From assembly GCA_964401135.1 (NCBI GenBank), contig CAYNXC010000001.1, positions 210,264-274,263 of the forward strand: 64,000 bases of DNA, given 5' to 3'. Both the position numbers and the translations under genes were made by a program. The notes below the pieces were generated by a model, which had not been told where the DNA came from, searched no databases, and was given only the letters and a program-made list of their open reading frames with translations. This DNA comes from an uncultured Candidatus Saccharibacteria bacterium (lineage in GTDB: Bacteria; Patescibacteriota; Minisyncoccia; Phycocordibacterales; UBA9988). This document shows, one piece after another, positions 12,992 through 42,815 of the stretch; position 1 is the first letter of the stretch, and every line of letters starts with the position of its first letter.

Positions 12992-15232
12992 ATGGAGAAA
13001 AAAGAATACTCAATGGAGTTGGGAGGCAAGACCCTGACGGCAACTTTTAGTGACCTCGCCGATCAGGCGCAGGGCTCAGTACTGATTAAGCACGGCGAGA
13101 CCGTCGTACTTGTCACAGCGGTGATGAGTAAGGATGCGAAGGAGGCAGCTGGATACTTCCCGCTCACTGTTGATTACGAAGAAAAGTTCTACGCCACCGG
13201 CCGTATCTTGGGGAGTCGTTTTGTAAAACGAGAGGGAAGGCCATCTGACGAGGCCATCCTCACCGGTCGAGTAGTAGACCGTACTATCCGTCCACTCTTT
13301 GATAGCCACATCAGAAACGAGGTACATGTGGTGGTGACAGTCCTCTCTATAGATGAAGAGAACGACCCCGATGTGCTTGGGATCATTGGCGCATCTCTCG
13401 CGCTCGGCACTTCAGAGATCCCGTGGAATGGCCCCGTCTCAGCCGTCCGCATTGGAGCAAAAGAGATGAGCTCTCCCTTTATGGTGACTCCCGGGTACTC
13501 CGAGAGAGAGCAGTGTGCCTTTGACCTGCTCATATGCGGGAAGGATGGCTCAATCAACATGATAGAAGCAGAAGCAACCGAGATTCCTGAAGCACGGATC
13601 AGCGAGGCCTTTGCGCTTGCTATTACAGAGCTTGCCAAGATTGAAGCATGGCAAAAGAGCATCATCATCGAGCGAGGAAAAAAGAAACTTTCCCTGCCTA
13701 AACCAGTACTTGCCCCAGAGATTATTGCAATCTTTAAGAAAGAAATTGAGCCGAAACTTGATTCGGCCATCTTTAGCGGAGCAGGGAAAGAGGCAATCCA
13801 CGCGCTTGAGGAGGAATGGATGACGCTCATTTTGGGACAATCCCCTGATGCGCCAAAAAATGACGCCTTGGATTACTATATGGATTCGGTCAATAACCTC
13901 CTCCACACAGAGGCAATCACAAAAAAGCGCCGTGCTGATGGCCGGAAGGTTGACGAGGTACGACCTCTCTTTGCGCAAGCGGGAGGACTCTCAAGTATCG
14001 TCCATGGAGCAGGATTCTTTTACCGTGGCGGGACACACATCCTCTCGGTACTCACTCTCGGGAGCCCTAAGGACTCACAAGTAATTGAGGGTATGGAAGT
14101 GCGCACTAAGAAGTACTTTATGCACCACTACAACTTCCCTCCATTCTCTTCAGGAGAGACCGGACGCATGGGGGGCACCAATCGTCGTGCCATTGGCCAC
14201 GGCGCACTTGCAGAAAAGGCGCTCCGTGCAGTCATCCCTCCAAAAGAGAAGTTCCCTTACAGTATCCGCATCGTGTCAGAGTCAATGGCCTCAAACGGTT
14301 CCACCTCAATGGGGAGCGTTTGCGGAAGTACCTTAGCCCTCATGGATGGTGGCGTACCGATTAAAAATCCTGTTGCAGGGATTGCGATGGGGGTGATGAT
14401 GGGGAATAACGGAGTCGAGCTTCCAGAGGGATGTCCGACTCCGTACCAGATACTCACCGACATTCAAGGCCCAGAAGATGAGCATGGCGATATGGACTTT
14501 AAGGTTGCGGGAACCAAGGAAGGGGTAACCGCTATCCAACTAGACATCAAAGTGGGGAGCATTCCCGTTGCAATCTTAAATGAGGCTCTCGACGGAGCGA
14601 GGGCCGCGCGGCTTCACATTCTAGAGACTATTACCACTGCAATCCCTGCGCCTCGCGCAGATCTAGCGCCCTCCGCACCGCGAATCATCCAAATCAGTAT
14701 CCCTGTTGAGAAGATTGGCGCAGTCATCGGCTCGGGAGGGAAGGTGATCAACTCAATTATTGAAGATACCGGTGCAGACATTGAGATAGAGGACGATGGA
14801 ACAGTCTACATCTCCGGCATGGTAGAGGCGGTGACAAAGGCAAAAGAGACTGTTGAGGGGATAACTCACGAGTACCAAGTAGGAGAGCGCTTTGAGGGAG
14901 AGGTAATCAAAGTATTGGACTTTGGCATTGTGGTAAAAATTGGACCAACACAAGAAGGACTCGTGCACATTTCAGAGATAGCGCCCTATCGCATTGATAC
15001 TGTAACTGGGTTCTTCTCCGTAGGAGAGAAAGTGCCGGTTGCCATCTGTGGACTTGACCCAGAGAAGGGAAAAGTAAGTCTCTCTATTAAAGATGCCGAT
15101 CCGAGCCTTGCAGAGAAAAAAGGCTTCACTCGTTCCGCCAGTATGGGATATAATGGGAGTGATCATGGACACACATCAGAAGAACGCAGGGGGAGACGCG
15201 GCGGCGGCAGACCCGGTAGCTCTGGACGATAA
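12992..15232 (+). CDS. pnp: Polynucleotide phosphorylase/polyadenylase with a Gly/Arg-rich C-terminal tail
   Basis: Two RNase PH domains (FPLTVDYEEKFYATGRI..; FSSGETGRMGG), then KH (GAVIGSGGKVIN) and S1 (GEVIKVLDFGIVVKI) domains. The RGRRGGGRPGSSGR tail is unusual. Confidence 0.9.
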   Translation: MEKKEYSMELGGKTLTATFSDLADQAQGSVLIKHGETVVLVTAVMSKDAKEAAGYFPLTVDYEEKFYATGRILGSRFVKREGRPSDEAILTGRVVDRTIRPLFDSHIRNEVHVVVTVLSIDEENDPDVLGIIGASLALGTSEIPWNGPVSAVRIGAKEMSSPFMVTPGYSEREQCAFDLLICGKDGSINMIEAEATEIPEARISEAFALAITELAKIEAWQKSIIIERGKKKLSLPKPVLAPEIIAIFKKEIEPKLDSAIFSGAGKEAIHALEEEWMTLILGQSPDAPKNDALDYYMDSVNNLLHTEAITKKRRADGRKVDEVRPLFAQAGGLSSIVHGAGFFYRGGTHILSVLTLGSPKDSQVIEGMEVRTKKYFMHHYNFPPFSSGETGRMGGTNRRAIGHGALAEKALRAVIPPKEKFPYSIRIVSESMASNGSTSMGSVCGSTLALMDGGVPIKNPVAGIAMGVMMGNNGVELPEGCPTPYQILTDIQGPEDEHGDMDFKVAGTKEGVTAIQLDIKVGSIPVAILNEALDGARAARLHILETITTAIPAPRADLAPSAPRIIQISIPVEKIGAVIGSGGKVINSIIEDTGADIEIEDDGTVYISGMVEAVTKAKETVEGITHEYQVGERFEGEVIKVLDFGIVVKIGPTQEGLVHISEIAPYRIDTVTGFFSVGEKVPVAICGLDPEKGKVSLSIKDADPSLAEKKGFTRSASMGYNGSDHGHTSEERRGRRGGGRPGSSGR

Positions 15233-15713
15233 ACTAAAAGCGGCCCGTCTCGCGATGGAGGGGCCAGAGTATGCCGCAAGACGAGAAGAGCGCGAGCGCA
15301 GTGAAGAACTCCACAAAAAGCGCGAGGTGGCAGAGCGACGCTTGGAAAGTATCAAGGAAGAAAAAGAAAAGCTGGAGCTCGCGTGGATTGCACTTGACGA
15401 GAAGCGTGTTCGCGCCCGCCAAACTCTGATGCCACTCTTGGAAGAAGAAAAGAAAATAGAGGCGGAAGAGACGGCTCTGGAAGAGAAAGAGCGTATCAAT
15501 GTGGTAGCAGAAGAACGACAGGTGATAGAGAAAGAGCGTTACGAGGTACAAAAAAGACGCCGCGCGGCAGAAGAGAAAAAATGGCAGAGCGAGGAGGCTC
15601 TTACCGACATTGAAGAAGAAGTTGATATACACACCAAAGCGTACCAAAAACTCTTGGATGAAGAGGAGGATCTGTATTCTAACCTAGAATCATTAGATAA
15701 AAAGATGCCATGA
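15165..15713 (+). CDS. KE/R-rich coiled-coil hypothetical protein
   Basis: Highly charged heptad-like sequence. The ORF overlaps the 3' end of pnp in another frame. Start taken as 15165 or 15177 (ORF-track start is 15093). Confidence 0.45.
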   Translation: MDTHQKNAGGDAAAADPVALDDKLKAARLAMEGPEYAARREERERSEELHKKREVAERRLESIKEEKEKLELAWIALDEKRVRARQTLMPLLEEEKKIEAEETALEEKERINVVAEERQVIEKERYEVQKRRRAAEEKKWQSEEALTDIEEEVDIHTKAYQKLLDEEEDLYSNLESLDKKMP

Positions 15714-16870
15714 TGCCGCTTGATGAACAGCGCCGCAAAGCGGCGCTTGCAATGGCAAGTCCCGAACAGCGGAAGCGGCAATTAGAGCGAGAGAAGCGCG
15801 AAGCAGAACTACAATCAGAGAGGGAAAAGCAAGCAGAACAAGCACAGGCACTTGAACTCGCACGCCAGAAGAAAGAAGCAGAGGCGCGTATTTTGAGAGA
15901 GGCAGAAGAACGAGAACAAAAACAACGAGAAAATAGTCGTCTTGAAAAAGCGCGCAAAGCGGAGGAGCAGATCAGTATGTTAAAGCGCCAAGCGCTGGGT
16001 ATCAATCAGCTCCGCACCATGAAGAGTGACTTGGAGCGAGCACAAAAGAAAGAGGCATCCCCTACATGGGCAGGATCTGCTGTTCCTGTCGGGACGCCAA
16101 TACTCAACGCACATTCACAAAAGCGTTATGTAGCAGAAGAGGAACCAACGCGATCTCGTCCAATACTCTGGTGGCTCGGAGGAGGACTCCTTGCGCTCCT
16201 TGCGCTTGGGGGCGGCGCGGCCTACATCATTTTTTCATCACAGGGGAGTATCCCAGGAGCGGCGAAGGAGCCAAGTGCTCCAGGCGCCCTCGTTACAGCA
16301 GAACAAACAATCGCTATTGATACTACGGGGAAAAATCCAGAGAACCTGCGCAGTATCATCACTCAGAAAATTATTACCGAGACACATAAAACAGGTTTAA
16401 CGCGCGCTTACTTTACCTACCAAGCAACACCAACCTCAAGCCCTGTCGTGTTAGGGGTAGGGGAGTGGCTCAATCGTGTAGGAGCATCTGCGCCAGGACT
16501 CCTAGTGCGCTCACTTGATAACTCCTTTGATTACGGAGCCTACCAATTGGTACCAAACGCGGCCTACATTATTCTCTCAAGCAAGGCCCCACAGAACGCC
16601 TTCTCTGGTATGCTCCAGTGGGAAGACACGACACTAGCCAAAGATCTGATCCCGCTTGTAAGCGGGAGCACGGTGGATGAAGGGCTCCTGCGTGGGACAT
16701 TTGAAGATAAGGTACTCTCTGGACTCAATATAGATGCGCGCATCTTGCGAGATACTACGGGGAACACTCGTCTTGTATACACCGTTTTGAGTGCACAAGG
16801 CGTTATCATCATTACCAAAGACGAAAAGACTCTTGCCGAGCTCTACCGGAGGGTCATTATTCCAGGTTAG
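15710..16870 (+). CDS. Hypothetical bitopic membrane protein (charged coiled-coil N-terminus, one TM, extracytoplasmic domain)
   Basis: ATGA overlap with the previous gene. TM segment WWLGGGLLALLALGGGAAYIIF. Confidence 0.5.
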   Translation: MMPLDEQRRKAALAMASPEQRKRQLEREKREAELQSEREKQAEQAQALELARQKKEAEARILREAEEREQKQRENSRLEKARKAEEQISMLKRQALGINQLRTMKSDLERAQKKEASPTWAGSAVPVGTPILNAHSQKRYVAEEEPTRSRPILWWLGGGLLALLALGGGAAYIIFSSQGSIPGAAKEPSAPGALVTAEQTIAIDTTGKNPENLRSIITQKIITETHKTGLTRAYFTYQATPTSSPVVLGVGEWLNRVGASAPGLLVRSLDNSFDYGAYQLVPNAAYIILSSKAPQNAFSGMLQWEDTTLAKDLIPLVSGSTVDEGLLRGTFEDKVLSGLNIDARILRDTTGNTRLVYTVLSAQGVIIITKDEKTLAELYRRVIIPG

Positions 16871-18843: not shown

Positions 18844-19120
18844 TAATAAAGACCGTCCGAGAAGCGAAATATAGAACAAATTAGTCACATCATTATGAGT
18901 AAGTACCAATTTGTTTCATCTGTCCGCAGAGAGATTGACGGACTCAACTCTGCCGTTGGCTTGAGAATAGTGAGGAGGAGAATCTATCGCGACCTTGTGC
19001 GTCGACACAAGAAGCTCACGCACACACTGCGGATGCTTGAGCGGAAAAGAGGATCTGGTATTCTCTCATTCTTTTTTTCGTAGCATCACATATTTCATCC
19101 GTAGTATACTTACAAGGATG

Positions 19121-19507
19121 CAGTATCTTTCTCTCGTCGGAAATTATCTCGTATGGCACTACACGCGCGGGTATCACGACCTCGCAGAAAACGCGTACAA
19201 CCTGCTCTATTTCTTATACCACTTTTTTTCAATACGAGAGCTCCTGCGCACTTTTTTCTCTCCATGGAAAAATTTTCATGGAGGGCTCGCGAGTGTGCAA
19301 ACGAGTGCGGAGTATCTCTCACTCATTACTCTAAATAGTGTCCTCCGGATTGTTGGTATCATCCTCCGAAGTATTATTATCGCAACCGGTTGTGCATCCC
19401 TCATCATCGGAGGAGGACTCACTATACTTGCACTCCTCTTATGGGCTATCATCCCTGGCATTATTGTATTTTGTTTCATTACTGGATTCTCTCTCCTATT
19501 TTTGTAG
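19121..19507 (+). CDS. Hypothetical polytopic membrane protein
   Basis: 128 aa with three or four hydrophobic helices. Its stop is one nucleotide before the start of the next gene. Confidence 0.4.
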   Translation, partial: QYLSLVGNYLVWHYTRGYHDLAENAYNLLYFLYHFFSIRELLRTFFSPWKNFHGGLASVQTSAEYLSLITLNSVLRIVGIILRSIIIATGCASLIIGGGLTILALLLWAIIPGIIVFCFITGFSLLFL

Positions 19508-19508
19508 T

Positions 19509-21503
19509 ATGGCATACTCACTTACCGAGCAGATGAGTACAGGGTTACAGAGGGCTTTGCGCGCAGAGCGTATTGTTTCACCTAGAAAAAAACGCTTTCT
19601 TTTACTCGTTGCGGACTGCATCATTATTCTCTTTGTACTCTGTACCATACTCGGGTACAGTGACCCATCTTGGAAAGAGGCGCGTATGCCTCTCATTGGA
19701 GGACTCTTAATGGTAAGTTCTCTCATTCTCTCGTGGTATCTCGTAAAGAGTTACATCCATTCACTCCTTGGGCGAGTAGAAGAACATGAGGGACCCTGCT
19801 CAATTGAAGCGGGACGAATATTGTTTCATCATAAAAAAAATCTACTCCGTGCATGTATCACAAGTCCCGTGGGGCGCAAATTATTTTTACGCGCAGGTAT
19901 CGCTCAAGAAAAAATTTCAAAGCTTACACACGCATTTGTTTCAAAAGAACTTATTGAAGAGCATGAGGGACACATCACACTAAAAGAGATTGCGCGAGTG
20001 CTCATAGAAAAAAGTGAAGAACTCAGACAACTCTTAGAAGAAGTGGGGCTAACACAGAGTGAGTTTATTGGCACAGCAGAGTGGATAGAACGAGAGAGTG
20101 GATGGATAAGAGAAAGAGAGTTGTGGTGGAGGAGGGGAGCCTTAAATCGCATCCCTGGCATTGCGAAGGATTGGGCAAAAGGAGACACGCCCACACTTGA
20201 TCATTACGCACACGACATCGTTGTCCCTCCCACTGTACGCTTCATCACACACAACAGGGAACTGAGAAAAGTGGAGGAGATACTCATGAAAGAAAAAAAT
20301 GCGCATGTCCTCATTGTTGGGGAACATGAGAGAGCATACAGGAGTCTCACTATAGGACTTGCGAGAGAAATTGGGAGCGGACACATCGTGCCACAGCTAG
20401 AGTCATTCCGCGTGGTGATGCTAGAGTCCAATCTTTTGGCTCAGAGCTTCACAGAGGCAGAGGGATTAAAAAAAGTATGTACTATGATACGAGAAGAGTT
20501 ACAACGAGTACATAATATCATCCTCGTGATTGATGCTCCGCATAATAAGATCATATTAGAGTCTCTCCTTACCATAAGACACAGTAAGATACTCGTATGC
20601 GTGCATAAAGAACAGCATCGAGATCTCCCCATAACAGAAGAGGTACGAGCAGGGCTCCACACCATCGTTGTGGAACCTCTCTCTGAAGAAGGAGAGATTG
20701 CGCTTCTTGAAGCACAATTACTTCGTATAAGTACTAGTCGTTACATTGAGATAAACTATCCGGCAATCGTACTCCTCGCACGATACACGAGCGAAGAAAA
20801 TGGTATTGCGAAACTATCAGAGATCATTCCCTGGGCGCGCAAAAAAAACATTTTTCTCATCAACCGCACGGTTTGTGAACAGTTTCTAAAAGAGGCACGA
20901 CTTATGCCGGAAGATGAAAGGGATCATATCCGTGCTCATCGCCTTTCTGATATTACAAAAGAGATGAATGTTTGCGCTCCTGCACAAACACTAGCGATAA
21001 AAGAGATTTCGCAGACGATACAGAAAAAGTATGTGGACTCAAAAAAGAAAGGTGGGCCACTTACAAGACTCCTCTTCTTAGGGCCAGAAGAACAAAAGCT
21101 GGTAGTGGCACAAGCACTCGCGCGAACTCTCTTTGGTGGAGAAGAAGCATTCATACATATCTCTCTCCCACACTATACAGATGTCACAACAATATCCAAT
21201 ACGATGCGAGAATATGTAGCACATCGCCCTGCTGTACTTATCTATGTAGAACAATTTGAGCATGCGAAAGAGGAGTTACGAGAAGCTATACTCAATTTCC
21301 CCGACATAACACAAGAGGCAGTCCTGATTGTATCAAGCCGTGCAGGAGAGCGGCACATAGAGTGGCTCATTGAGACTGGAAAAAATATTGAAGAGGAGGC
21401 GGACGCAATTCTCTCTGGTATCGTCCACGATGGAGTACTCACACAAGAGACATTAGAGAGCTTTGACACCATCGCTCTCTTTAGCCCCACACTCAATAGC
21501 TAG
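19509..21503 (+). CDS. Membrane-anchored Clp (ClpA/B/C)-like protein with degenerate ATPase motifs
   Basis: Two N-terminal TMs. The first domain aligns to Clp NBD1 but has LIVGEHERAYRS in place of GEPGVGKT. The second aligns to NBD2 but has LFLGPEEQKL in place of GPTGVGKT and VEQFEHA in place of DEVEKAH. Confidence 0.6.
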   Translation: MAYSLTEQMSTGLQRALRAERIVSPRKKRFLLLVADCIIILFVLCTILGYSDPSWKEARMPLIGGLLMVSSLILSWYLVKSYIHSLLGRVEEHEGPCSIEAGRILFHHKKNLLRACITSPVGRKLFLRAGIAQEKISKLTHAFVSKELIEEHEGHITLKEIARVLIEKSEELRQLLEEVGLTQSEFIGTAEWIERESGWIRERELWWRRGALNRIPGIAKDWAKGDTPTLDHYAHDIVVPPTVRFITHNRELRKVEEILMKEKNAHVLIVGEHERAYRSLTIGLAREIGSGHIVPQLESFRVVMLESNLLAQSFTEAEGLKKVCTMIREELQRVHNIILVIDAPHNKIILESLLTIRHSKILVCVHKEQHRDLPITEEVRAGLHTIVVEPLSEEGEIALLEAQLLRISTSRYIEINYPAIVLLARYTSEENGIAKLSEIIPWARKKNIFLINRTVCEQFLKEARLMPEDERDHIRAHRLSDITKEMNVCAPAQTLAIKEISQTIQKKYVDSKKKGGPLTRLLFLGPEEQKLVVAQALARTLFGGEEAFIHISLPHYTDVTTISNTMREYVAHRPAVLIYVEQFEHAKEELREAILNFPDITQEAVLIVSSRAGERHIEWLIETGKNIEEEADAILSGIVHDGVLTQETLESFDTIALFSPTLNS

Positions 21504-22465
21504 AAAGGATTCTGTGCGCCGCGGACTTCGAAGTGGAGGTGGGCGCCAGTAGAGCGTCCAGTCATCCCGACAGTACCAATAGCGTCACCTTGCTCAACAA
21601 ACATACCTTGAGAGACAGTAATGCTATCCATATGCGCATAGAGTGTCTGCGTGCTGTTACCATGTTTAATGACCACATAGTTCCCGTAGCCGCCATTCCA
21701 GCCGCTTGAACGGCTCACGATGACTTGACCACTTGCGGCGGCCATGACTGTTGTACCAACAGGAGAGGCAAGATCAATACCATTGTAGCCATGTATGCCT
21801 TGAGAGCGCATAGAACGAGTAAGAGGTTTAATAAAGTAACCACTGACTGATTTCTTTGTAGAATTATCTGCAATAGGAATGGTAGATTGGCCAGAAGAAA
21901 CAGTAATGTCTCCATCGGGGACCATAATAAGCGCCCCTACGATAAGAGGGTGATGTACATCGATTCCGTTAAATTGAGCAATCTCTTCACTGTCGGCTCC
22001 ATAGCGTTTGGCGATACGGCTTACGGTATCTCCTTTTCTGACCGTATGACGGACTCCAGACACTGGCAAGATGACGAGAGTCTGATCAGGAGACACTTTT
22101 GATCCACTGGTAAGGTCATTTGCCCAGAGAATAGTTGAGGGAGAGACTCCGAACATCTCTGCAATTCCGCCAATTGTGTCCCCCTCGCGTACCACATAGA
22201 GACTGATTTGATCGCTTGGAGGAGCCTCCTTTATATCCGCAACAGTACCAAGGGGCCCCGAATCTGCGAGGAGAGCATTCCCCACAATAATCGTATCCCC
22301 ACCACCTCTTGCTGGATGTGGGTTTTGGTTTACTGCTGGTTGAAGGAGGGGTATGGTCTGGGAATTTAAAGATTGTGAGGCCAATGCCTCTTGTCTGCCG
22401 ACATAGACGAGTCGTTCTTTAATGAGTGAGAAAAAATCTACAAAGGTAGTGTTGTGATCCAACAA
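21500..22465 (-). CDS. Peptidoglycan hydrolase: two LysM domains plus M23 (LytM) metallopeptidase
   Basis: Two LysM repeats (YVVREGDTIGGIAEMFGV; HTVRKGDTVSRIAKRYG) and M23 motifs (HGYNGIDLA...GAHLHFEV). The TTG start lacks a signal peptide, and an in-frame upstream extension encodes a hydrophobic anchor. Confidence 0.75.
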   Translation of the reverse strand: MLDHNTTFVDFFSLIKERLVYVGRQEALASQSLNSQTIPLLQPAVNQNPHPARGGGDTIIVGNALLADSGPLGTVADIKEAPPSDQISLYVVREGDTIGGIAEMFGVSPSTILWANDLTSGSKVSPDQTLVILPVSGVRHTVRKGDTVSRIAKRYGADSEEIAQFNGIDVHHPLIVGALIMVPDGDITVSSGQSTIPIADNSTKKSVSGYFIKPLTRSMRSQGIHGYNGIDLASPVGTTVMAAASGQVIVSRSSGWNGGYGNYVVIKHGNSTQTLYAHMDSITVSQGMFVEQGDAIGTVGMTGRSTGAHLHFEVRGAQNPF

Positions 22466-22654: not shown

Positions 22655-25024
22655 TCAACTGCGCAGACGGGTAAGGATGGCGGCTTCAACACTTGTAAGA
22701 TCTCTCCCATATGAGAGGCGGGAAAGTTCTTTTAATTTTTCTGCAACTTCTTGAGATCCTCTCTCGGTAGTGCGCGTTTGGATAGCGAATGCAGGTGAGG
22801 GCTCCCCGTTCACCAAGAGCTTCATAATTGCGTGACGATTTTCTGTACTCATGAGATCAGATGCAGAAAAGGTTGGCTCTACATACTGCTTTAAATACTC
22901 GGCATCTTCAGCCCCCACACGGAAGAGTGCGAGTGACCCCACATTTCCGAAGACTGCCGCCTTGATGGTATCCGAAAGCTGGGCAATAAACTGATGTGCA
23001 AGAGTAAGTGAGAGATGATACTTGCGTGCTTCGGAGAGAATAACCGCAATTGAGTCTGTGGTAAAGTTTTGAAACTCGTCAATGTAGAGATAAAAATCTG
23101 TTCGTGATTGTTCCGACATATCACCTCGAGCAAGCGCGGCCAAAAGAATGCGTCCGGTAATAATCATCCCCAAGAGACCTGCATTAAGATCTCCAATCTT
23201 CCCTTTTGAGAGATTAACGAGTAAAATCTTCTTCGTATCAAGCACTTCCCTAAAGTTAAATGACGATGAAGTTTGCCCAATAATAGGTCGAATGTAATCG
23301 TTTGCAATAAAATTATTAAACTTCGAGGTAATGTAGGGGGTCATATTCGCAAGCCCCTGTTCTCCAGATGTCTTCACTGCCTCTTTTTCCCAAAAATCTA
23401 TGACAACCGGGTTGAGGATGCGAGAGAGCTTACGCTTTCTAAACTCCGGATCGGTAAAGATGCGCGGCACCTCAATCAAAGTGGCGGGTTCATTCTTCAT
23501 ATCCTCCATAAGAAGAAGGAGTGCATTACGCATATACTGCTCAAACATTGGCCCCATTGTCTCCGCCGTAAAAAGACGGTTAAAAATAGACTGGAGTTCG
23601 TTCACAATAAAGGTTCGTTCCTCCGGCTTTTCTGTCTGATGTTCCAACATATTAAGCCCTAGTGGACGCTCGCGATCTCCGGGGTCAAACACGATGACAT
23701 CATTAATACGGCTCTTTGGCACGACGCTCAAGAGGTCGGTAATAAGATCGCCATGCGGGTCTATCACACAGAGGCCGTTCCCAGCCTCAATATCTTGTGC
23801 CGCCATAGTGCGCAGAAGAGAGCTCTTCCCCGTACCTGTCTGGCCAATGAGGTAGAAGTGCCGTAGACGATCAGTGGTGGAGAGGCGCACCGCCTGTGCA
23901 TCGCCACGAAACAGGTTCTCACCAATGGTGACTCCTTCTTGGGAAAGATTTGCGGGGGGAGCCGACTCTCGTGTGCGCAACCAACTTACCCGAGGGATGT
24001 CTAAGGAGTTGGTAGGTAAGTGGAAGATACTAGCCAACTCTTCTGTATTCAAATACATACTCTCGGCATCTCTCCACTCTCTGAATGAGTAACGATACAA
24101 GAGCGACTGTGTGTCGCGAGGAAGCACCGTAACAAAGCCGTTATGTTTTGTGGTAGTGAATTGGGAAAAAGACCCCGCAATAGAAGTAAAGAGGTCATGT
24201 GCCCTATCTTCATTCCCGCCAGAAGTTACAATACGGGCAATCACAGAAAGGAGGGGACTGCCCGCCTTCCGCTCAAGCATAGCAACAGATTCTGTATCAA
24301 CGAGGGATGCGGGTTGAATCTCTACCTTCTTACTCGGTGTTGCGGTAAGCTCTTCATGGAGCTCTTTTAGCCCAAAACTAACTCCTTTCTTTACATCTTC
24401 AAGCTTTACTCCTTTTCTTAGTTGCTCAAGTGCTGATACGAGGCGCTTCTTCGCATTTTGATCAGCGGGGCGGATAAGAAACTGCAGTGAGGCACCGTCC
24501 CCTACACTCTCTAGGTGAGATAAGGTGCTCACGATTGGCGTAAAGGTGTCTAGCGAGGACTCACGATATGTCCGGATGGGGAGGATAAACGACTCTTTGA
24601 GTGAAAGATACCCCGCAACCGCAATACCATGCGGATTGAATACTGAATAGTCGTTCACACGCTCAATGCGTGCCTCAGGGTACAGGCCTCGCACCTGATC
24701 ACTTACATACGCTGCACTCTCACGAGGCACTGATGTATAGAAATAAATTTCCTCTCCAATGTGATGTACCGAGACCTCAAACACAACCGGCCTCCCGATG
24801 GCAGAGAGTGAAGAGAAGAGCTGTTCAGAGAGCGCAATATCTCGGAGTCTTCTCTCTGCATCTCCTCCCGTACCACGAGGCACAGAGATGCGTAAGAGTA
24901 CATACGAGAGGGTAGAGAGGCGCGGACTTCTAAACCACTGAAAGAGGAGTACCAGCATCACCGCGCACGAGAGTGCAGCAATCCCTCCACCAGCTATCCA
25001 CAACAGGCTAGGTAATGAGACCAT
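22655..25024 (-). CDS. VirD4/TraD/TraG-like type IV coupling protein-family ATPase (FtsK/HerA superfamily), membrane-anchored
   Basis: N-terminal TM, Walker A IGQTGTGKSSLL, CVIDPHGDL, Walker B-like YLYIDEFQNF, and LAHQF. A long roughly 380-aa domain precedes the P-loop, which is atypical. Confidence 0.6.
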   Translation of the reverse strand: MVSLPSLLWIAGGGIAALSCAVMLVLLFQWFRSPRLSTLSYVLLRISVPRGTGGDAERRLRDIALSEQLFSSLSAIGRPVVFEVSVHHIGEEIYFYTSVPRESAAYVSDQVRGLYPEARIERVNDYSVFNPHGIAVAGYLSLKESFILPIRTYRESSLDTFTPIVSTLSHLESVGDGASLQFLIRPADQNAKKRLVSALEQLRKGVKLEDVKKGVSFGLKELHEELTATPSKKVEIQPASLVDTESVAMLERKAGSPLLSVIARIVTSGGNEDRAHDLFTSIAGSFSQFTTTKHNGFVTVLPRDTQSLLYRYSFREWRDAESMYLNTEELASIFHLPTNSLDIPRVSWLRTRESAPPANLSQEGVTIGENLFRGDAQAVRLSTTDRLRHFYLIGQTGTGKSSLLRTMAAQDIEAGNGLCVIDPHGDLITDLLSVVPKSRINDVIVFDPGDRERPLGLNMLEHQTEKPEERTFIVNELQSIFNRLFTAETMGPMFEQYMRNALLLLMEDMKNEPATLIEVPRIFTDPEFRKRKLSRILNPVVIDFWEKEAVKTSGEQGLANMTPYITSKFNNFIANDYIRPIIGQTSSSFNFREVLDTKKILLVNLSKGKIGDLNAGLLGMIITGRILLAALARGDMSEQSRTDFYLYIDEFQNFTTDSIAVILSEARKYHLSLTLAHQFIAQLSDTIKAAVFGNVGSLALFRVGAEDAEYLKQYVEPTFSASDLMSTENRHAIMKLLVNGEPSPAFAIQTRTTERGSQEVAEKLKELSRLSYGRDLTSVEAAILTRLRS

Positions 25025-30297: not shown

Positions 30298-32390
30298 AGG
30301 TACGAGAACATACACTCATTATAATCTCGCTCGGAATCGCCTTTCTTTCAATCTTTTTTGTAGGGTCGCTCACGGTACAGGCAGAGGAACAAAGGGCAAA
30401 CGATAACAGTCTTATTCAAGCTGGTTTTGATTACGGCCCACAAGAAACAATTGCTCAAGAAATTATTAATGGTCGTGCCGAGAACGACCTCAAAGAGTGT
30501 GTCGCAGAAACAGGGAATACTACCTCGGGAGGATCATCCGGTGGCGACTATGTTCCCGTGCATGAAGTGGGGGAGCTCCTCTCGCTCACCACGGGCATCA
30601 ATAAAAAAGTAACGCACGGCAACGATCTCTTGGTAGATATCTGTATGCACTTAAAGGCGATACGACGCGTGCAGTATGTAATGGAGGCACAAGTGCTCTA
30701 CCATGACCCCAATGCGCGCAAGGCCGCGGCAAAGGCAATCTTTGAACACAAACAGTCCTTCATAGAGAACAACATTAAGAAGGGTTATGAAGTTTCTCCC
30801 GCACTCCTCGGTACCAGCGGGACAGAGAGTAGTTCGGAAAATAAGCAGCCGCTCTATGTGGCAAATATGGACGAGCACCTCAAGTCTGTACGCAGTGAGG
30901 CCTACGGAGTTTTTGATGCTGATTTAACCACACTCAACTCTTCAGCAAATCCAAATATCTTCACCGATAGCATCCGCAAAAATCTTGCAGTCTCTGAAGC
31001 AGCAGGGGAGAGTGAGGAATCACGATTGAGGACATCTCTCGGGTCTACTATCACGAAAGATGAATTCAACGCCTTTACCAACGACTTCTCACAAGGTGGG
31101 TGGGATATGTGGCTCAAGGTACTTGATCCACGCAACAACTACAGAGGCTCAAAAATTCTTGCACAGGATGAGCTCAATTATAGAAAGTCACTCGCAGAGA
31201 CAAACGCGAGAGAAGAAATTGCATCAGCAAAAGGATTTCTCCCTGTTCGTGAATGTGCCACAGAAAACTGGGTAACAACTGCTGATGGGAAGAAGTACTG
31301 TAGAAAGTGGACGGTCAAAACTCCTGGGACCATCAACGAGAGTTACCTTGCAGACATTGTCGGGTCAACTCTGCGTCAAAATGAGATAGCAGATCAGTCG
31401 GTGGAAGATTTTAGCAAGACAGAGTTTGCACGCGTAGAGAGTGAGTTAACTAACCTAGAAAAGGTGGGGAAGACGGAGGACAGAGTAGCAGTACAGAGCA
31501 TCTTCCAAAAAGAGGATCCATGCCCCGGACCAGGGCCTTGTGAAGATTCTGGCTGGGTGGGGAGTAGTGCAGGAGGAGGGATAGGCGGAGGAGGAGGTAT
31601 CACTAACCCAACAACACTCGCGCAACAAATTTATAACAATAAAAATACATTACCAGGTCTCCCTGATGGATTACAATCAATCTTCAACATCCCTGGACTC
31701 TCACAGGAAGCAATCATCAAACAGATTACAGAGTGGCTTAAAAAAGATACCAATGGAAATGGTACTCCCGACTACTTAGAGAGTGAGCCCCCGAAGATTG
31801 TCTTTACTGCCGAAACCAACTCCCTTGCAATTGCGGCCGATGCGGATAGAAACACCACAAAACTTACCTGGAATGCGTGGAATGCAACGGAGTGCAGTGC
31901 GGTCAACGACTGGTTGAGTGCAAGTACGATTACAAAATCGCGCGATACCAAGCTCGCCCCAACAGGGACGCTCACCGTACGACACCCATACACCTTTACC
32001 GTGAGTCTCTCTCGGAGTCCTGACTTAAGTGGATGGAGCACGGGGAGAGTAACGAGCGTGGCGGATCAATTTCTCCTCTCTCAAAAAACAACCATTGATC
32101 TCTCTGGTCTTACTGCCGCGTCGGGGTTAAGCTTCACCCTCTCACTTGGCACCAATGCCAACCTCACTGTAGTGGGAAATAGTTCAAATCAAAATCTGAC
32201 ACAGTCATTCAAAGAAGCGTATAACACACTCTCACAGACAGATGTGAATTATTCTGCTTTGCGTGGTAAGTACGCATTCACTTTTGATATCTCAAACAAA
32301 AAAATCTACATCAGTGCCAATCCGATATACAAAATCTCTTGCACGAATGCGAACAGTACAGAATATAAAGATGTAACGATTACGCGATGA
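30294..32390 (+). CDS. Large secreted or surface hypothetical protein (698 aa), T4SS-cluster associated
   Basis: Signal peptide, a Gly-rich stretch GGGIGGGGGITNP, and no recognisable family. ATGA overlap with the previous gene. Confidence 0.5.
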   Translation: MKVREHTLIIISLGIAFLSIFFVGSLTVQAEEQRANDNSLIQAGFDYGPQETIAQEIINGRAENDLKECVAETGNTTSGGSSGGDYVPVHEVGELLSLTTGINKKVTHGNDLLVDICMHLKAIRRVQYVMEAQVLYHDPNARKAAAKAIFEHKQSFIENNIKKGYEVSPALLGTSGTESSSENKQPLYVANMDEHLKSVRSEAYGVFDADLTTLNSSANPNIFTDSIRKNLAVSEAAGESEESRLRTSLGSTITKDEFNAFTNDFSQGGWDMWLKVLDPRNNYRGSKILAQDELNYRKSLAETNAREEIASAKGFLPVRECATENWVTTADGKKYCRKWTVKTPGTINESYLADIVGSTLRQNEIADQSVEDFSKTEFARVESELTNLEKVGKTEDRVAVQSIFQKEDPCPGPGPCEDSGWVGSSAGGGIGGGGGITNPTTLAQQIYNNKNTLPGLPDGLQSIFNIPGLSQEAIIKQITEWLKKDTNGNGTPDYLESEPPKIVFTAETNSLAIAADADRNTTKLTWNAWNATECSAVNDWLSASTITKSRDTKLAPTGTLTVRHPYTFTVSLSRSPDLSGWSTGRVTSVADQFLLSQKTTIDLSGLTAASGLSFTLSLGTNANLTVVGNSSNQNLTQSFKEAYNTLSQTDVNYSALRGKYAFTFDISNKKIYISANPIYKISCTNANSTEYKDVTITR

Positions 32391-34447
32391 AGCACTGCTC
32401 ACGGATAATTGCGGGGACACTCTTTTTTCTCACTATTTTTGTTTTGTTTTTTGGTGTAGTCCAGACAGTAAATGCTCAAGCCCCTTTACCAGTAATTCCT
32501 GGGTATAACGCTCCTGACACTCCTGAATGGCATGAGATAGCAAGAAAACAAAACACAATGGTAACAGAGTCAGTGGGAGGAGAAGGGGGATTGCTTTCAT
32601 TTCTTCTTCCCAGTTTCAGTGATTTAACAAATTGGATTGGGGATGTTATTTCAACCGCACTCATTTGGCTTGCTGGCAACTTCCTTTGGTTGGGCGGCAA
32701 ACTTCTGGATGCTTCCGTCCAATTTAATGTCTGCGATATGAAGAGTCTAATGGGGACGGCTGTTGTCTCCCAGGGGTGGCTTATCGCTCGTAATATCGCT
32801 AACTTCTTCTTCATCTTCATCCTCCTCTACATTGCCATCTCTATTATTTTAAATGTTGGAGAAAGTCAAAAGAGGTTAATTGTATGGGTCGTGATCATTG
32901 CGCTCGTCATTAACTTTAGCGCCGTGCTTACGCGCTTTGTTATTGATGTATCTAACATCTTTGCCTATCAATTCTATTCAAGCATTGTGGGGGGAGGGGA
33001 TCCGTGCACCGAAGAGAGTCGTAATACAACAGGAATTTCTGCTAATTATATGACTGCATTGAAGTTTCAGAAATATGCAGAAGAAGAATCGAGCTCTGAC
33101 TCTCTCTATAAGGGTATTGAAGGATTTGGAGCAAAGACAGTGACAGGAATCATGACGGCAACATTTATTACCATCACTGCATGGAGTTTTATTATTGTCG
33201 CAGCACTAATGATTATCCGTTCCGCGGTGTTAATGATTCTTATTGTGCTCTCACCAATCGCATTTATGGGATTTATCCTACCACAAATAAAACAGGTAAT
33301 GACTAAGTGGTGGGGCGCACTTATTAGTCAAGCCTTCTTTGCGCCGGTGTACCTCTTCTTTGCCTACATCACCCTCGTCCTCGCTAAGGGTACTGTGGCA
33401 CTTTTTTCACAAGAGACTTTTGCCTCTGGATCTGAACAGATATTCAAAATCTTTTTGCAGTACTCAATCCTCATTACACTCATTGTCGTAGGACTCATCC
33501 AAGCAAAAAAGATGAGTGCCGCCGGCGGAGGGGCAGTGCAAGCGCGAGTACTTAAGTCTCTTGATTGGATGCGCGGACAAGCAACAGGAGCCATGGGACG
33601 CAATACAGTGGGGAGACTCGGCCGTCAAATCGCTGATAGTGATCGTGTTAAGAGATGGTCATCAGGCTCTGGTGGTATCTTAAAGAAAGCCGCGGGGATT
33701 CCTATTAAGAATGCAAGTGCTTCTATGGCTGGAGGGAAGTATGGTGGCGGGAAGAGTTACGATGATATTGTTAAGAAGCAAATTGAACGGGCAAAGGGAA
33801 TTGAAGACCCTGCAGATAAAGCGCGCGTCTTGGGAGGAATGAGTACTGCCGCGCGCAGAGAGTACTTTGATAGTCTCTCTGACCGTGAGAAAGCAGAGAC
33901 ACTTGATGCGGCAAAGACTCTCGGGGGCTTCACGCAAGCACGGGTAGAAGGACAGCGTGAGCGACTTACCGCAGAGCAGGTTGAAAAAATGGAGAAGGCA
34001 GGTGGAGAGGGGAAGGATGCTACACGCAAAAAAGAGCAATCCGCAGATATTGAAGCAGTGGTTGGTAATACAGAAAAAGGTATAGCTGGTCTACCAAGAG
34101 GTTCAGACGAGAGAAGAATTAAGATTGAAAAGGTGGTCACAGGACTTAAAGATGATGAGGGACGCAAACTGGCAAAGATTGTTGAAGATGCGGACACGAC
34201 CGACATTGCCACAATGTACGGGAAGATGAACCCACTTGATCTTGTAGACTTAATGGGGAAGGCTAAACTCTCAAATGATGCTAAAGAAAAACTACGAAAG
34301 GGGATGTTGGATCTTGGAGAAGATCACCCAACATTTATTGAGCTACACAGTAATCCAAAATTAAAGATCCTCTTTGGTAGTACACCAATAAACGCACCTA
34401 GGTCAGCACCGACTCCTGCTAATCCTCCAGGAACCACTACAGCATGA
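32387..34447 (+). CDS. VirB6/TrbL-like polytopic membrane protein (T4SS inner-membrane component) with a long hydrophilic C-terminal tail
   Basis: Signal peptide, then at least five or six TM helices in a TrbL/VirB6-like arrangement, then a charged roughly 250-aa tail. Start overlaps the previous gene. Confidence 0.5.
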   Translation: MKHCSRIIAGTLFFLTIFVLFFGVVQTVNAQAPLPVIPGYNAPDTPEWHEIARKQNTMVTESVGGEGGLLSFLLPSFSDLTNWIGDVISTALIWLAGNFLWLGGKLLDASVQFNVCDMKSLMGTAVVSQGWLIARNIANFFFIFILLYIAISIILNVGESQKRLIVWVVIIALVINFSAVLTRFVIDVSNIFAYQFYSSIVGGGDPCTEESRNTTGISANYMTALKFQKYAEEESSSDSLYKGIEGFGAKTVTGIMTATFITITAWSFIIVAALMIIRSAVLMILIVLSPIAFMGFILPQIKQVMTKWWGALISQAFFAPVYLFFAYITLVLAKGTVALFSQETFASGSEQIFKIFLQYSILITLIVVGLIQAKKMSAAGGGAVQARVLKSLDWMRGQATGAMGRNTVGRLGRQIADSDRVKRWSSGSGGILKKAAGIPIKNASASMAGGKYGGGKSYDDIVKKQIERAKGIEDPADKARVLGGMSTAARREYFDSLSDREKAETLDAAKTLGGFTQARVEGQRERLTAEQVEKMEKAGGEGKDATRKKEQSADIEAVVGNTEKGIAGLPRGSDERRIKIEKVVTGLKDDEGRKLAKIVEDADTTDIATMYGKMNPLDLVDLMGKAKLSNDAKEKLRKGMLDLGEDHPTFIELHSNPKLKILFGSTPINAPRSAPTPANPPGTTTA

Positions 34448-35390: not shown

Positions 35391-36050
35391 ATGGCAACAA
35401 AACAAGCAAACGCTTCACAAAAATTTCTCCCTATCCGCGAAATACGCGATAGTGTTGTGGTACTCTCTGATGGTGGAATGCGTATGGCCTTAATGGCCTC
35501 GTCTCTTAACTTTGCACTGAAATCACAAGACGAACAGATGGCAATACTACTCCAGTTTCAAAATTTTTTAAATGCTCTTGATTTTCATATTGAGTTTTTC
35601 ATAGAATCTCGCCGCTTGGACATACGACCCTACCTGCGCATCCTTGAGGACCGTATGAAGGAGCAGGTCAACGATCTGGTAAAAATACAAACCAAAGAGT
35701 ATCTGGACTTTGTGCGCAGTTTTACTGAGAGTACCAATGTGATGTCTAAATCATTCTTTGTGGTAGTGCCCTACAGTCCTCCAATCATCCAGAACTCAAG
35801 TGGATTTTTTGGGAAAATGTTTAATCGGGATAAAACTAATACTCAAGCTCTAGATGAGAGTGCATTTGAAGAACATCGGACACAACTTGAACAGCGTTCG
35901 TATGTCGTTGCACAGGGACTTGCCGCGTTCGGAGTACGATCAGTCATCCTTGGTACCGATGAGCTGGTAGAGCTCTATTACAAATTATTTAACCCCGGAG
36001 AGAAGGATGCGCCACAACCGGGAAGCTACACCAACAATGCCTCTGTTTAA
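35391..36050 (+). CDS. VirB4-like N-terminal domain as a separate ORF (possible split or frameshifted virB4)
   Basis: Immediately precedes, and overlaps in another frame, the VirB4 ATPase ORF. Size of about 219 aa matches the VirB4 N-terminal domain. Confidence 0.45.
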   Translation: MATKQANASQKFLPIREIRDSVVVLSDGGMRMALMASSLNFALKSQDEQMAILLQFQNFLNALDFHIEFFIESRRLDIRPYLRILEDRMKEQVNDLVKIQTKEYLDFVRSFTESTNVMSKSFFVVVPYSPPIIQNSSGFFGKMFNRDKTNTQALDESAFEEHRTQLEQRSYVVAQGLAAFGVRSVILGTDELVELYYKLFNPGEKDAPQPGSYTNNASV

Positions 36051-37875
36051 GAAAAAAGAAGTGTCTGAGGAGGAGGCAAGTGTCTCCGTCATCCCCCGTG
36101 ATTTTTATGAGGGCAATCAACTTTCTCTCAAGGATGTCATCGCCCCTGCTGCGCTCCAAGTTAATCCAAGCTTCATCAACATTGGCGGTAAGTACGCACG
36201 CACCTTCTTTGTTATCTCCTACCCTCGACAGTTAGCAAAGAGTTGGTTTAGTCCCATCATCAACCTTGACCGTGTGTTTGATATTTCTATCTATGTGCAC
36301 CCTATTGACACTTCGGTAGTCCTCCGACAATTACAGAAAAAAGTTGCCGAGGTACAGAGCCAAATTTCAGTACGAGAGGAGCGGGGAATGGTGCGTGACC
36401 CCAAACTAGACACCGCGTACCAAGATATAGAATTCCTCCGCGACCAGCTCCAGCAATCGCGAGAAAAAATGTTTGATGTGGGTCTCTATCTCACCTTTTA
36501 TGGAGAGAGCGAGGAAGAGCTCAACAAAACAGAATCGGAAGTAAAAAGTATGTTGGAGTCAAAACTGGTATATGTGAAGCCTGCTGTATTTCAACAAGAA
36601 GATGGTTGGAAGAGCACTTTGCCGCTCGGTATGGACTTACTCTCTGTACATTCAAAATTGAACTCCTCTCCACTCTCATCACTCTTCCCCTTTACCTCGT
36701 TTGACCTTACCAGTAACCAAGGGATCCTCTACGGCATCAACCGTCACAACGCCTCACTGGTGATGTTTGATCGCTTTTCAATGGAGAATTACAACTCCGT
36801 CACCTTTGCCAAGTCTGGATCGGGCAAGTCTTACGCCACCAAACTAGAGATCCTCCGGAGTCTTATGTTTGATGTGGATGTGATAGTGATAGACCCTGAA
36901 CGAGAGTATGAGTATATGGCGGAATCTGCAGGAGGGCGTTATTTTAACATTTCACTCACTTCAGAGCACCATATTAACCCATTTGATTTACCATTTCCCC
37001 GCGAAGATGAATCGCCTGCAGATGTATTACGGAGTAACATCATTAACCTCGTTGGGCTCTTTCGTATTATGTTGGGAGGCCTCACCCCTGAAGAAGACTC
37101 TATCATTGATTCTGCTATTACAGAGACTTACGCACTCAAAGATATTACTGCAGACAGCGATTTTACCGGAAAACCTGCCCCTATCCTCTCTGACCTTAAC
37201 CTCGTACTTGCCTCTATGGAAGGAGGGGAGTCGCTCTCACAGAGACTCAATAAGTACACTCAAGGCACCTGGGCGGGGTTCTTAAACCAACCAACCAATG
37301 TAGACATCAATAAAAAGTTTGTAGTCTTTTCAATCCGTGATATGGAGGATGAGCTCAAGCCTGTCGCAATGTACATTATTATGCACCATATTTGGAATGT
37401 AGTGCGCCGGACGCTTAAAAAAAGGATTCTAGTGGTAGATGAGGCGTGGTGGATGATGAAGGCAGAAGATACAGCCTCCTTTCTCTTCTCACTCGCTAAG
37501 CGCGGAAGAAAGTACTACTTAGGTCTCGCTACCATTACACAAGATGTAGGCGACTTCTTAAAGTCACCTTACGGGCTCCCTATGATTACCAACTCATCTA
37601 TACAAATACTCCTAAAACAATCGCCGGCATCTATTGATCTTGTTCAACAAACCTTTAACCTCACCGATGAGGAGAAGTACCTCCTCCTTGAGTCAGCAGT
37701 GGGGGAGGGAATCTTTTTTGCTGGGCTAAAGCATGTAGCGATTAAGGTAATCGCTTCGTACACCGAGGATCAAATCATTACCTCCGATCCTTCGCAGGTA
37801 CTCGCCATTAAAAAAGCGAAGGATGAACTGCGAGCGGCAGAGAGTGCTGGTCCCGTTGCAGGAGCTACGGCATGA
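36037..37875 (+). CDS. virB4: VirB4/TrbE/CagE-family conjugative transfer ATPase (C-terminal ATPase portion)
   Basis: Walker A FAKSGSGKSY, Walker B LVVDEAWWMM, and the overall VirB4 motor pattern. Confidence 0.8.
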   Translation: MPLFKKKEVSEEEASVSVIPRDFYEGNQLSLKDVIAPAALQVNPSFINIGGKYARTFFVISYPRQLAKSWFSPIINLDRVFDISIYVHPIDTSVVLRQLQKKVAEVQSQISVREERGMVRDPKLDTAYQDIEFLRDQLQQSREKMFDVGLYLTFYGESEEELNKTESEVKSMLESKLVYVKPAVFQQEDGWKSTLPLGMDLLSVHSKLNSSPLSSLFPFTSFDLTSNQGILYGINRHNASLVMFDRFSMENYNSVTFAKSGSGKSYATKLEILRSLMFDVDVIVIDPEREYEYMAESAGGRYFNISLTSEHHINPFDLPFPREDESPADVLRSNIINLVGLFRIMLGGLTPEEDSIIDSAITETYALKDITADSDFTGKPAPILSDLNLVLASMEGGESLSQRLNKYTQGTWAGFLNQPTNVDINKKFVVFSIRDMEDELKPVAMYIIMHHIWNVVRRTLKKRILVVDEAWWMMKAEDTASFLFSLAKRGRKYYLGLATITQDVGDFLKSPYGLPMITNSSIQILLKQSPASIDLVQQTFNLTDEEKYLLLESAVGEGIFFAGLKHVAIKVIASYTEDQIITSDPSQVLAIKKAKDELRAAESAGPVAGATA

Positions 37876-41765: not shown

Positions 41766-42464
41766 CTACGCGTGGAGGCGTTTATAGCCCTGTTCGTAAG
41801 CAATAGAGAAGAGGGTGTTAGTAAGCCAGTACAGAGCAACTGCGGCAGGGAGGCCAGCTGATACCACACCAATCACTATCGGCATAATATACTTCATTTG
41901 GAACTGCAGACTTCGATTAAAATCCTCAGCAAACGAGCGTTCTTCAGTTTGATTTGGAGAGGATGAGGGGAGAGAGAGTTTTGTGTGAATAAACTGTGCA
42001 ATGGTAATAATTACTGCAAACACAATACTTTTTGCACCTAGATCAACACCAAGAAAGATGGCATTAACATACGATGGCGCATGAACAAATGAGTAGAGCC
42101 CGTACTTGAGAGACTCCAGACCATCCCGAAAGACAAGAAATAAGCCAATAAATATGGGTATTTGCACTAAAATAACGGCAAACCCAGCAAAGGGATTGAC
42201 CCGGTGTTCTTTATAGAGCGCCATGACGCGACGAGCCTCCTCTTCACGATTACCAACAGTGTCTTTTTTGATTTTTTTCAGCTCCGGTTCTATTTTTTTC
42301 AGCTCTTTCTGTGTAGATAGAGCTCTATTTTGGAGAGGGATAAGCACTATCTTTACCAGCACTGTAAGAACAATAATAGAAAGTCCAATACTATTCCCAG
42401 GGAGTACTCCTGTTAAAAACACGAGGGCATTATAGAGAGGTTCGGATATGAGTGTATGGAACAT
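41766..42464 (-). CDS. yidC: Membrane protein insertase YidC/Oxa1 (short form)
   Basis: Conserved YidC core LIPLQNRALSTQKELKKIEPELKKIKK...NPFAG. Position is downstream of rnpA. Confidence 0.85.
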   Translation of the reverse strand: MFHTLISEPLYNALVFLTGVLPGNSIGLSIIVLTVLVKIVLIPLQNRALSTQKELKKIEPELKKIKKDTVGNREEEARRVMALYKEHRVNPFAGFAVILVQIPIFIGLFLVFRDGLESLKYGLYSFVHAPSYVNAIFLGVDLGAKSIVFAVIITIAQFIHTKLSLPSSSPNQTEERSFAEDFNRSLQFQMKYIMPIVIGVVSAGLPAAVALYWLTNTLFSIAYEQGYKRLHA

Positions 42465-42471
42465 ACAGTGA

Positions 42472-42804: not shown

Positions 42805-42815
42805 ACACAGTATGG

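Follow-up and report, generated by a model that had tools for sequence, protein, structure and literature searches.

We analyzed a stretch of 64,000 nucleotides (nt), referred to here as the window, from an uncultured Candidatus Saccharibacteria bacterium (NCBI GenBank assembly GCA_964401135.1, contig CAYNXC010000001.1, positions 210,264 to 274,263 of the forward strand). At positions 19509..21503 of the forward strand (stop codon included) the window carries a gene for a Clp/Hsp100-like protein of 664 amino acids (aa) that is a pseudo-ATPase anchored in the membrane. Our data support, with a probability of about 0.7, that this protein is an ATP-independent pseudoenzyme kept for a membrane-proximal role together with a small partner protein, and that it derives from a family powered by the second AAA+ module (D2). 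The descriptive part of this statement, comprising the Hsp100 fold, the membrane anchor, the loss of motifs, the link to the partner and the D2-powered ancestry, is very probable. That the protein would serve as a scaffold is somewhat favored.

Two AAA+ Modules without Catalytic Motifs

The gene begins with the ATG at 19509 and ends with the stop codon at 21501-21503, within an open reading frame (ORF) listed at 19338-21503, and its product is identical to the database protein P0001 (664 aa). An earlier note on this DNA had recognized the ORF, which is real, and had given the protein 665 aa; the start that it used, at 19506, lies one codon too early. In phmmer searches against PDB sequences the best matches were ClpC and ClpB (best E 2e-11), in two stretches at aa 224-347 and aa 476-595 that correspond to the first AAA+ module (D1) and to D2. 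A structural model was obtained with AlphaFold2 (AF2) from an 80-sequence alignment, with a predicted local distance difference test score (pLDDT) of 88.9 and a predicted template modeling score of 0.76. It consists of a helical hairpin, an eight-helix domain and two alpha/beta modules, and its Foldseek matches in the PDB were chains of ClpC, ClpB, ClpC1 and Hsp104 with E values from 1e-20 to 1e-16. The two modules are thus collinear with D1 and D2 of ClpC/ClpB, as the earlier note had proposed. Pfam gave no relevant match to the protein (only two spurious ones below threshold, E 0.12), and NCBIfam gave weak ClpV/ClpB/ClpA scores of at most 39 bits, against cut-offs of 885-1232 for the ClpB, ClpA and TssH equivalogs.

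Beginning at the N-terminus, the protein has a transmembrane (TM) hairpin at aa 26-80 (19584..19748, forward strand) with an RKKR cluster just before it. Kyte-Doolittle hydropathy places the two hydrophobic segments at aa 26-53 and aa 60-80, and the AF2 model has helices at aa 25-51 and aa 53-92, in agreement with the two N-terminal TM helices noted before. A putative Clp-N-like helical domain follows at aa ~95-205 (19791..20123), with eight modeled helices at aa 99-204, where the Clp-N type has two four-helix repeats. Pfam Clp_N does not match this region; Foldseek alignments to ClpC/ClpB extend over up to 738 columns and include the N-domain. The linker at aa 206-236 (20124..20216) reads WWRRGALNRIPGIAKDWAKGDTPTLDHYAHD, and its C-terminal part aligns with the TPTLD..ARDLT start of ClpC D1. 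The D1 pseudo-ATPase module occupies aa ~237-472 (20217..20924), as judged by alignment to ClpC D1, and the D2 remnant occupies aa 473-664 (20925..21500).

Both modules have lost the residues on which ATPase activity depends. In D1, GEHERAYRS (20319-20345) sits opposite GEPGVGKTA of the Clp reference in the phmmer/PDB alignment, and ILVIDAPH (20520-20543) sits opposite ILFIDELH, so that the Walker B Asp is kept (ILVID) and the catalytic Glu is gone. In D2, the P-loop remnant GPEE-QKLV (21081-21104) has GPEE-QKL opposite GPTGVGKT, with neither Lys nor Thr and with a deletion of one residue in the loop. The D2 Walker B remnant IYVEQFEHA (21240-21266) lies opposite VLLDAIEKA, for which the form usual in the family is LLLDEFEK. 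The earlier note had reported degenerate Walker A motifs in both modules and a degenerate second Walker B; all of these are confirmed at the aligned positions, and the loss of the D1 Walker B Glu is added to them. Damage to D2 goes further: the pore-loop segment (RLIGSFxxGKPG) is replaced by an 11-aa gap, the sensor-1 Asn is lost (SSRAG for TSNAG), the Arg finger is lost (TLESFD for LLNRFD), and the protein stops ~110 aa short of the family's GARPMNR, so that the whole D2-small domain and the GAR sensor-2 are absent. The replacement residues also vary among the close relatives that share this condition (GPEE-QKL versus GPTK-RKM, and VEQFEHA versus IENFEQT). A regular-expression scan of the 664-aa protein found none of [AG]x4GK[ST], GK[ST] or hhhDE, and scanning all six frames of 19001-21600 gave no [AG]x4GK[ST] P-loop. 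An intact GxxGxGK[ST] at some other site, which the earlier note had named as a refuting result, was thus sought in the protein and in those frames and not found. With the Walker A Lys/Thr, the acidic pair of Walker B, the pore loop, sensor-1, the Arg finger and the sensor-2 lid all lost from D2, the protein very probably can neither bind nor hydrolyze ATP, nor thread substrate.

A Patescibacterial Family of Membrane-Anchored Hsp100 Relatives

A word-indexed search with the window protein returned only three relatives: P0002 (74% identity, 472 aa), P0003 (48%, 691 aa) and P0004 (22%, 801 aa). The last of these has the TM hairpin and a WW..IPG.AKDW.YG.T linker in common with the window protein, and its D2 is perfect (GPTGVGKT, LLDEFEKA and D2-small). 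An exhaustive profile search of 1.84 billion representatives then yielded at least 150 full-length relatives of ~800 aa. When 151 sequences were aligned with MAFFT, the D1 P-loop proved intact in one and the D1 hhDE in three, and D2 kept its P-loop (GPTGVGKT) in 148 and its Walker B (LLLDEFEK) in 146. Among those aligned, only the window protein, P0003 and P0002 were without D2 motifs, and of these P0002 has no D2 at all. The signature linker, WW.R..L.RIPG[IL][AG]KDW.YG.T..L..Y..D, which the window protein also has, is among the most conserved columns in members with a dead and with a live D2 alike.

Family members carry source names such as "AAA family ATPase [Patescibacteria group bacterium]" or "ClpC". 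Live members score 300-430 bits against the ClpB/ClpA NCBIfam equivalogs, below the cut-offs of 993-1232, and Pfam finds in them AAA_2 and ClpB_D2-small only; on these grounds the family is best regarded as a relative of Hsp100 that is not ClpA, ClpB, ClpC or ClpV. In the literature, of which coverage was incomplete, neither a TM-anchored bacterial Hsp100 nor this family from the candidate phyla radiation (CPR) was found described, a result that is absence of evidence only.

To estimate how widespread the family is, GTDB species genomes were scanned with two D2 peptides specific to it, LLDEFEK[TA] and FLQI[LF]DEG, a design that is blind to members with a dead D2. At least 521 relatives were found, in species genomes that bear almost exclusively labels of patescibacterial lineages, and the locus counts given below rest on the best 80 of them. 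The titles of these 80 span the Patescibacteria (Paceibacterota, Taylor-, Vogel-, Kaiser-, Moran-, Andersen-, Nealson-, Levy-, Curtiss-, Davies-, Berkel-, Peri- and Kuenenbacteria), and many are third-party-annotation metagenome-assembled genomes labeled Saccharibacteria. An N-terminal hydrophobic anchor is present in 74 of the 76 full-length members. A canonical D1 P-loop was seen in nine of the 76, all rather divergent (L062, L067, L072, L075, L076, L077, L079, L083 and L084), two of which, L076 and L083, also retain the D1 hhDE. Given these nine, decay of D1 is graded across the family and not universal. The live family would normally be a membrane-anchored Hsp100/Clp-like AAA+ protein that works with a dedicated small membrane protein and is powered by D2 alone. 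This qualifies the suggestion that the window protein is not a standard bacterial component: its anchor, its partner and its dead D1 are usual in a family present in at least 521 species genomes, and what is unique to a narrow clade is the death and truncation of D2.

No third gene universally linked to the family emerged from the locus neighborhoods. There is a mild envelope or division flavor, with SerS and an FtsQ-type POTRA protein upstream in many Paceibacterota and, downstream, S11/S13 DD-carboxypeptidases, YkuD, MraZ/MraW and PGA_cap, or the M23-LysM endopeptidase in the clade of the window. A gene for a canonical soluble Clp ATPase (Clp_N, AAA, AAA_lid_9, AAA_2 and D2-small) appears directly upstream of the family gene at 1322-4027 in L064 and at 1216-3909 in L081 (locus assigned from gene length).

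A Small Membrane Protein Linked to the Family

Directly upstream of the Clp-like gene, at 19118..19507 on the same strand, lies a gene for a helical membrane protein of 129 aa, which ends one nucleotide before the ATG, as the earlier note had observed. The hydrophobic segments of this protein lie in its C-terminal half (aa 69-129) by hydropathy. Its AF2 model is all-helical (pLDDT 89.9) and has no match with E < 1 among PDB folds; Pfam and NCBIfam give no match, and the source annotation is "hypothetical protein". In Pfam and NCBIfam, no curated family reaches its threshold for either component of the pair.

Each locus first examined has the 129-aa gene just upstream, including that of P0004, where the wider neighborhood is different, and the protein is conserved beside the ATPase in distant loci, at 28% identity. 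A hidden Markov model of the 129-aa protein, iterated once, detected the partner in 70 of the 80 GTDB family loci. Its gene lies immediately upstream on the same strand in 61 of these, and in the other nine the partner forms the N-terminal part of a fusion with the ATPase, in place of the TM hairpin (e.g., residues 2-115 in L041). Among the ten loci in which no partner was detected, six place the ATPase gene at a contig edge or close to it. That the two genes stay adjacent over deep divergence and have also fused independently argues strongly that the 129-aa protein and the Clp-like protein act together in the membrane. The fusion loci are L037, L038, L041, L044, L049, L058, L059, L065 and L079, and some D1 P-loops among them read GxxGxGRKT.

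Upstream of the partner, at 18896..19084 on the forward strand, is a gene for a basic protein of 62 aa (MSKYQFVSS...). Gene calls show a gene for 62-63 aa in the corresponding place in L001, L085, L087 (a locus with a live D2) and L088, and it is conserved in all members of the clade; it may be the first gene, and third member, of the operon.

Stepwise Loss of the Motor at One Chromosomal Position

P0013, encoded in locus L087 on a JGI contig, has 813 aa with a live D2 and D2-small. Its locus and the window have in common the succession S15, NYN, PNPase, two unknown genes, a DksA-type zinc finger and ComM on one side, and VirD4-like DUF8128 (reverse strand), UvrD, RsmA and DUF192 on the other. 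Between ComM and the VirD4-like gene, the P0013 locus has LexA-like S24, the 63-aa gene, the small partner, the Clp-like gene and M23-LysM (reverse strand), all but the first of which have their counterparts in the window. The flanking order agrees over about 20 kb, and the window gene is therefore the positional ortholog of the live P0013. The same syntenic block surrounds P0003 (691 aa, dead), P0002 (472 aa) and the copy in L088, which lies on a 672-kb contig, has 664 aa, is 90% identical to the window protein and carries the same dead motifs.

The proteins form a series of decreasing size, from 813 aa in the live P0013 to 691 aa in the dead P0003, 664 aa in the dead window and L088 proteins, and 472 aa without D2 in P0002. 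Stepwise deletions account for 12 aa in D1, for 11-12 aa twice in D2 and for D2-small. P0002, from the sister genome L085, was considered as a fragment truncated by a contig end. This was rejected, as its gene stops inside the contig, 138 nt short of the M23 gene, and is followed only by an 11-aa trace of D2 (E 0.15); the whole D2 module has been deleted. These comparisons show that the motifs and D2-small were lost first, that further deletions of 11-12 aa came next, and that all of D2 was lost last. A metagenome scan added one further locus of the P0003 type, along with live relatives that are 21-32% identical to the window protein. Two loci, L093 and L103, were examined as additional independent losses of D2 and rejected, since their D2 continues in another frame; the genes on these metagenome contigs are split by frameshifts, which may be assembly errors or real disruptions.

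The Clp-like gene sits amid housekeeping genes of conserved synteny, near the replication origin. The convergent gene behind it, at 21500..22465 on the reverse strand, encodes a LysM-M23 peptidoglycan endopeptidase (Pfam) and shares the 4 nt at its 3' end with the Clp-like gene; it is syntenic in all relatives. The VirD4-like gene that comes next is likewise syntenic with the Clp-like module in all relatives and belongs to a set of type IV secretion-like genes at 22655-25024 (reverse strand), 32387-34447, 36007-37875 and 39249-40496, which encode a VirD4-like DUF8128 coupling protein, a TrbL/VirB6-like protein, a VirB4/TraC-like protein and a pilin-like protein of type IV secretion systems. 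Between ComM and the 62-aa gene the window (18844-18895) is without ~1.7 kb that corresponds to 8061-9777 in L088. In the relatives, including L088 at 90% identity, this segment encodes the LexA-like S24 peptidase and carries one or two small genes on the reverse strand. Two ORFs behind PNPase (15093-16870) are rich in Glu, Lys and Arg and apparently coiled-coil; the second of these (386 aa, no Pfam match, with a central hydrophobic segment) is only 32% identical to its L087 ortholog and thus evolves very fast. An AT-rich dip at 41766-45752 (GC 0.30-0.38) is the chromosomal origin region, with YidC (reverse strand), DnaA at 43097-44440 and DnaN at 44658-45752.

Selection on the Dead Protein

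Within its syntenic block the Clp-like gene evolves fastest. The window protein shows 47.5% identity to P0003, where the neighboring proteins reach 67-93%, and 28.6% identity to P0013, where they reach 45-74% (with one at 32%). P0013 is nearer to distant homologs in Paceibacterota (39%) than to its ortholog in the window. Fast evolution, however, does not amount to an absence of constraint here. The ratio of nonsynonymous to synonymous substitution rates (dN/dS), calculated by the Nei-Gojobori method between the window and L088 at an unsaturated dS of about 0.35, was 0.05 for the TM hairpin, 0.08 for the N-domain, 0.15 for D1 and 0.21 for D2. The same comparison gave 0.11 for the partner and 0.04-0.06 for the neighbors ComM and VirD4-like. 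Older comparisons agree in having low dN/dS, but dS is saturated in them. P0002, of only 472 aa, keeps the TM hairpin, the N-domain and D1 at 74% identity with a dN/dS of about 0.14.

The window protein is a selected and presumably expressed pseudoenzyme on which constraint has loosened, most of all in D2. Constraint is tightest on the TM hairpin, the Clp-N-like domain, the WW/IPGIAKDW linker, the D1 pseudo-ring and the partner protein. Pseudogene status was considered and rejected, given frames that are intact in all four lineages of the dead clade and dN/dS values of 0.05-0.21 that are not near 1.

Other Explanations for a Dead Clp-Like Protein

It is conceivable that the protein is not autonomous but a regulatory or structural subunit of a mixed ring, in which a live Hsp100 (a family paralog or ClpB/ClpC) would be tethered or tuned at the membrane. 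Inactive subunits or domains of this kind have precedents in Pex1/Pex6 and in Torsin-LAP1/LULL1. The full AAA+ architecture with ring-forming folds kept at high model confidence, the continued purifying selection on D2, and the canonical Clp ATPase genes that appear directly upstream in at least two GTDB loci (e.g., L064 and L081) would all be in keeping with such a ring. We nonetheless consider it unlikely, as just one family member is present in the 64-kb window and no genome occurs twice among the best 80 GTDB loci, which suggests a single-copy family. By synteny, moreover, the dead gene replaced the live one and is not a duplicate of it, and a sister lineage without D2 is hard to square with an essential place in a two-tier ring. 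Less probable still is that the gene is being lost, the ATPase function having become dispensable and the ORF being a slowly decaying relic without function. Its rank as the fastest-evolving gene of the block, the stepwise internal deletions (12 aa in D1, 11-12 aa twice in D2, and D2-small) and the complete absence of D2 in L085 are what a relic would lead one to expect. Such a relic would not be expected to have left ORFs intact in four lineages across a divergence at which synonymous sites are saturated, to show dN/dS of 0.05-0.21 where dS is unsaturated, to keep the 1-nt junction to a conserved partner gene, or to preserve the TM hairpin, N-domain and D1 in the 472-aa version as described above.

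We give very little credence to the idea that the protein is an active NTPase that works through non-canonical residues. Nothing positive speaks for it beyond the facts that sequence alone cannot prove a loss of binding and that D1 keeps its Walker B Asp (ILVID). Against it, neither P-loop has a Lys or Thr and that of D2 is also shortened by one residue; the Walker B acidic pair, Arg finger, sensor-1, sensor-2 lid and pore loop of D2 are lost or replaced; and the replacement residues differ among members of the clade, unlike those of a new conserved site. That the protein is an ATP-independent pseudoenzyme with a membrane-proximal role remains, in our view, the best explanation, and several points weigh against it in turn. 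The dN/dS of 0.21 in D2 indicates that this module is not simply junk, and to call it a vestige may understate its role. The dead clade is narrow, with just four sequence lineages to represent it, and its genomes may encode elsewhere a second copy that is live or a different Hsp100 as partner. Some AAA+ pseudo-sites still bind nucleotide. Of the catalytically dead, membrane-tethered scaffold proposed in the earlier note, the loss of catalytic motifs under purifying selection therefore stands; the loss of ATP binding is inferred from sequence, and a role as scaffold is likewise an inference.

Comparison with Known AAA+ Systems

The best sequence and fold matches of the window protein are the class-I Hsp100 proteins ClpC, ClpB and ClpA, with which it has the order N-domain, D1 and D2 in common. 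Its live relatives resemble ClpB in particular by a ClpB-type D2 with AAA_2 and ClpB_D2-small. Compared to these proteins, the window protein adds the TM hairpin and a dedicated membrane partner, and is without P-loops, catalytic residues and D2-small. Its D1-to-D2 spacing is about 180 aa, which leaves no room for the M-domain of ClpB, and by this spacing the live machine appears to be without an M-domain as well. In the alignments, the stretch from sensor-1 to the Arg finger shows no [ILV]G[FL] tripeptide of the kind found in Clps that dock to ClpP, so that the live machine also appears to be independent of ClpP.

FtsH and Msp1/ATAD1 are AAA+ machines that are held in the membrane by an N-terminal anchor and extract clients from it. 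The likeness to them is architectural only, in that an N-terminal TM anchor would put the substrate-entry face of the ring beside the membrane; such an arrangement would be the likeliest working model for the live family. Those enzymes are of the classic single-ring AAA clade, in contrast to the family of the window protein, which is a two-tier Hsp100 without a protease domain, and the window protein itself appears to lack motor activity. Pex1/Pex6 and NSF are two-tier AAA+ proteins in which one ring is inactive. The live patescibacterial family resembles Pex1/Pex6 in combining a degenerate D1 ring with a working D2 ring; in the window protein, unlike in Pex1/Pex6 and NSF, both rings are dead, and lineage and membrane attachment differ. 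In the PTEX system of Plasmodium, the Hsp100 protein HSP101 works with the membrane pore EXP2; HSP101 is soluble, and its D2 exit face meets the pore. PTEX resembles the present family in coupling an Hsp100 to a membrane protein partner and is a precedent for Hsp100-driven membrane translocation. The anchor of the window family is instead at the entry (N-domain/D1) end, and the 129-aa protein has no homology to EXP2. The Torsin activators LAP1/LULL1 and other AAA+-like pseudoenzymes resemble the dead protein as membrane-tethered AAA+ folds that do not bind nucleotide and yet have a conserved function (PMC5638581). They are eukaryotic, have a single domain and donate an Arg finger to a live partner. 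In the window protein, by contrast, the Arg fingers are lost, and it is not known to have a live partner.

A Possible Membrane Module and Its Implications

Established structures of Hsp100 proteins have the substrate entering at the N-domain/D1 face. Since the anchor of the family is at that same end, the live machine would face the membrane, as an unfoldase or extractor powered by D2. For the window protein we hypothesize that the small protein and the TM hairpin form a complex in the membrane, that the N-domain/D1 face sits against the membrane, and that this face binds or organizes a client or partner without input of energy. The D2 remnant would then give only stability to the fold or the oligomer and would be undergoing erosion, a process that in one sister lineage has ended in its deletion.

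A broader idea, which we put forward tentatively and hold to be rather doubtful as yet, is that the partner and the TM-anchored Hsp100-like protein constitute an unrecognized membrane machine found throughout the Patescibacteria, of which the lineage of the window would be a natural motor-dead mutant. Such a machine could be a ClpP-independent motor for extraction or translocation, with its entry face on the membrane, and could possibly be tied to envelope or division proteins.

If this broader idea is correct, the membrane module made up of the partner, TM hairpin, N-domain and D1 pseudo-ring would have an autonomous core function that does not require ATP. Genomes of Patescibacteria (CPR) are tiny, and the retention in hundreds of species of a membrane AAA+ protein of ~800 aa and its dedicated partner despite that small size suggests that the family likely has an important role. 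The dead clade would also be a clean example of a two-ring AAA+ enzyme turning into a pseudoenzyme stepwise under selection. A live, a dead and a deleted motor at one chromosomal position form a rare natural series, which would separate the motor-dependent from the motor-independent role of the machine.

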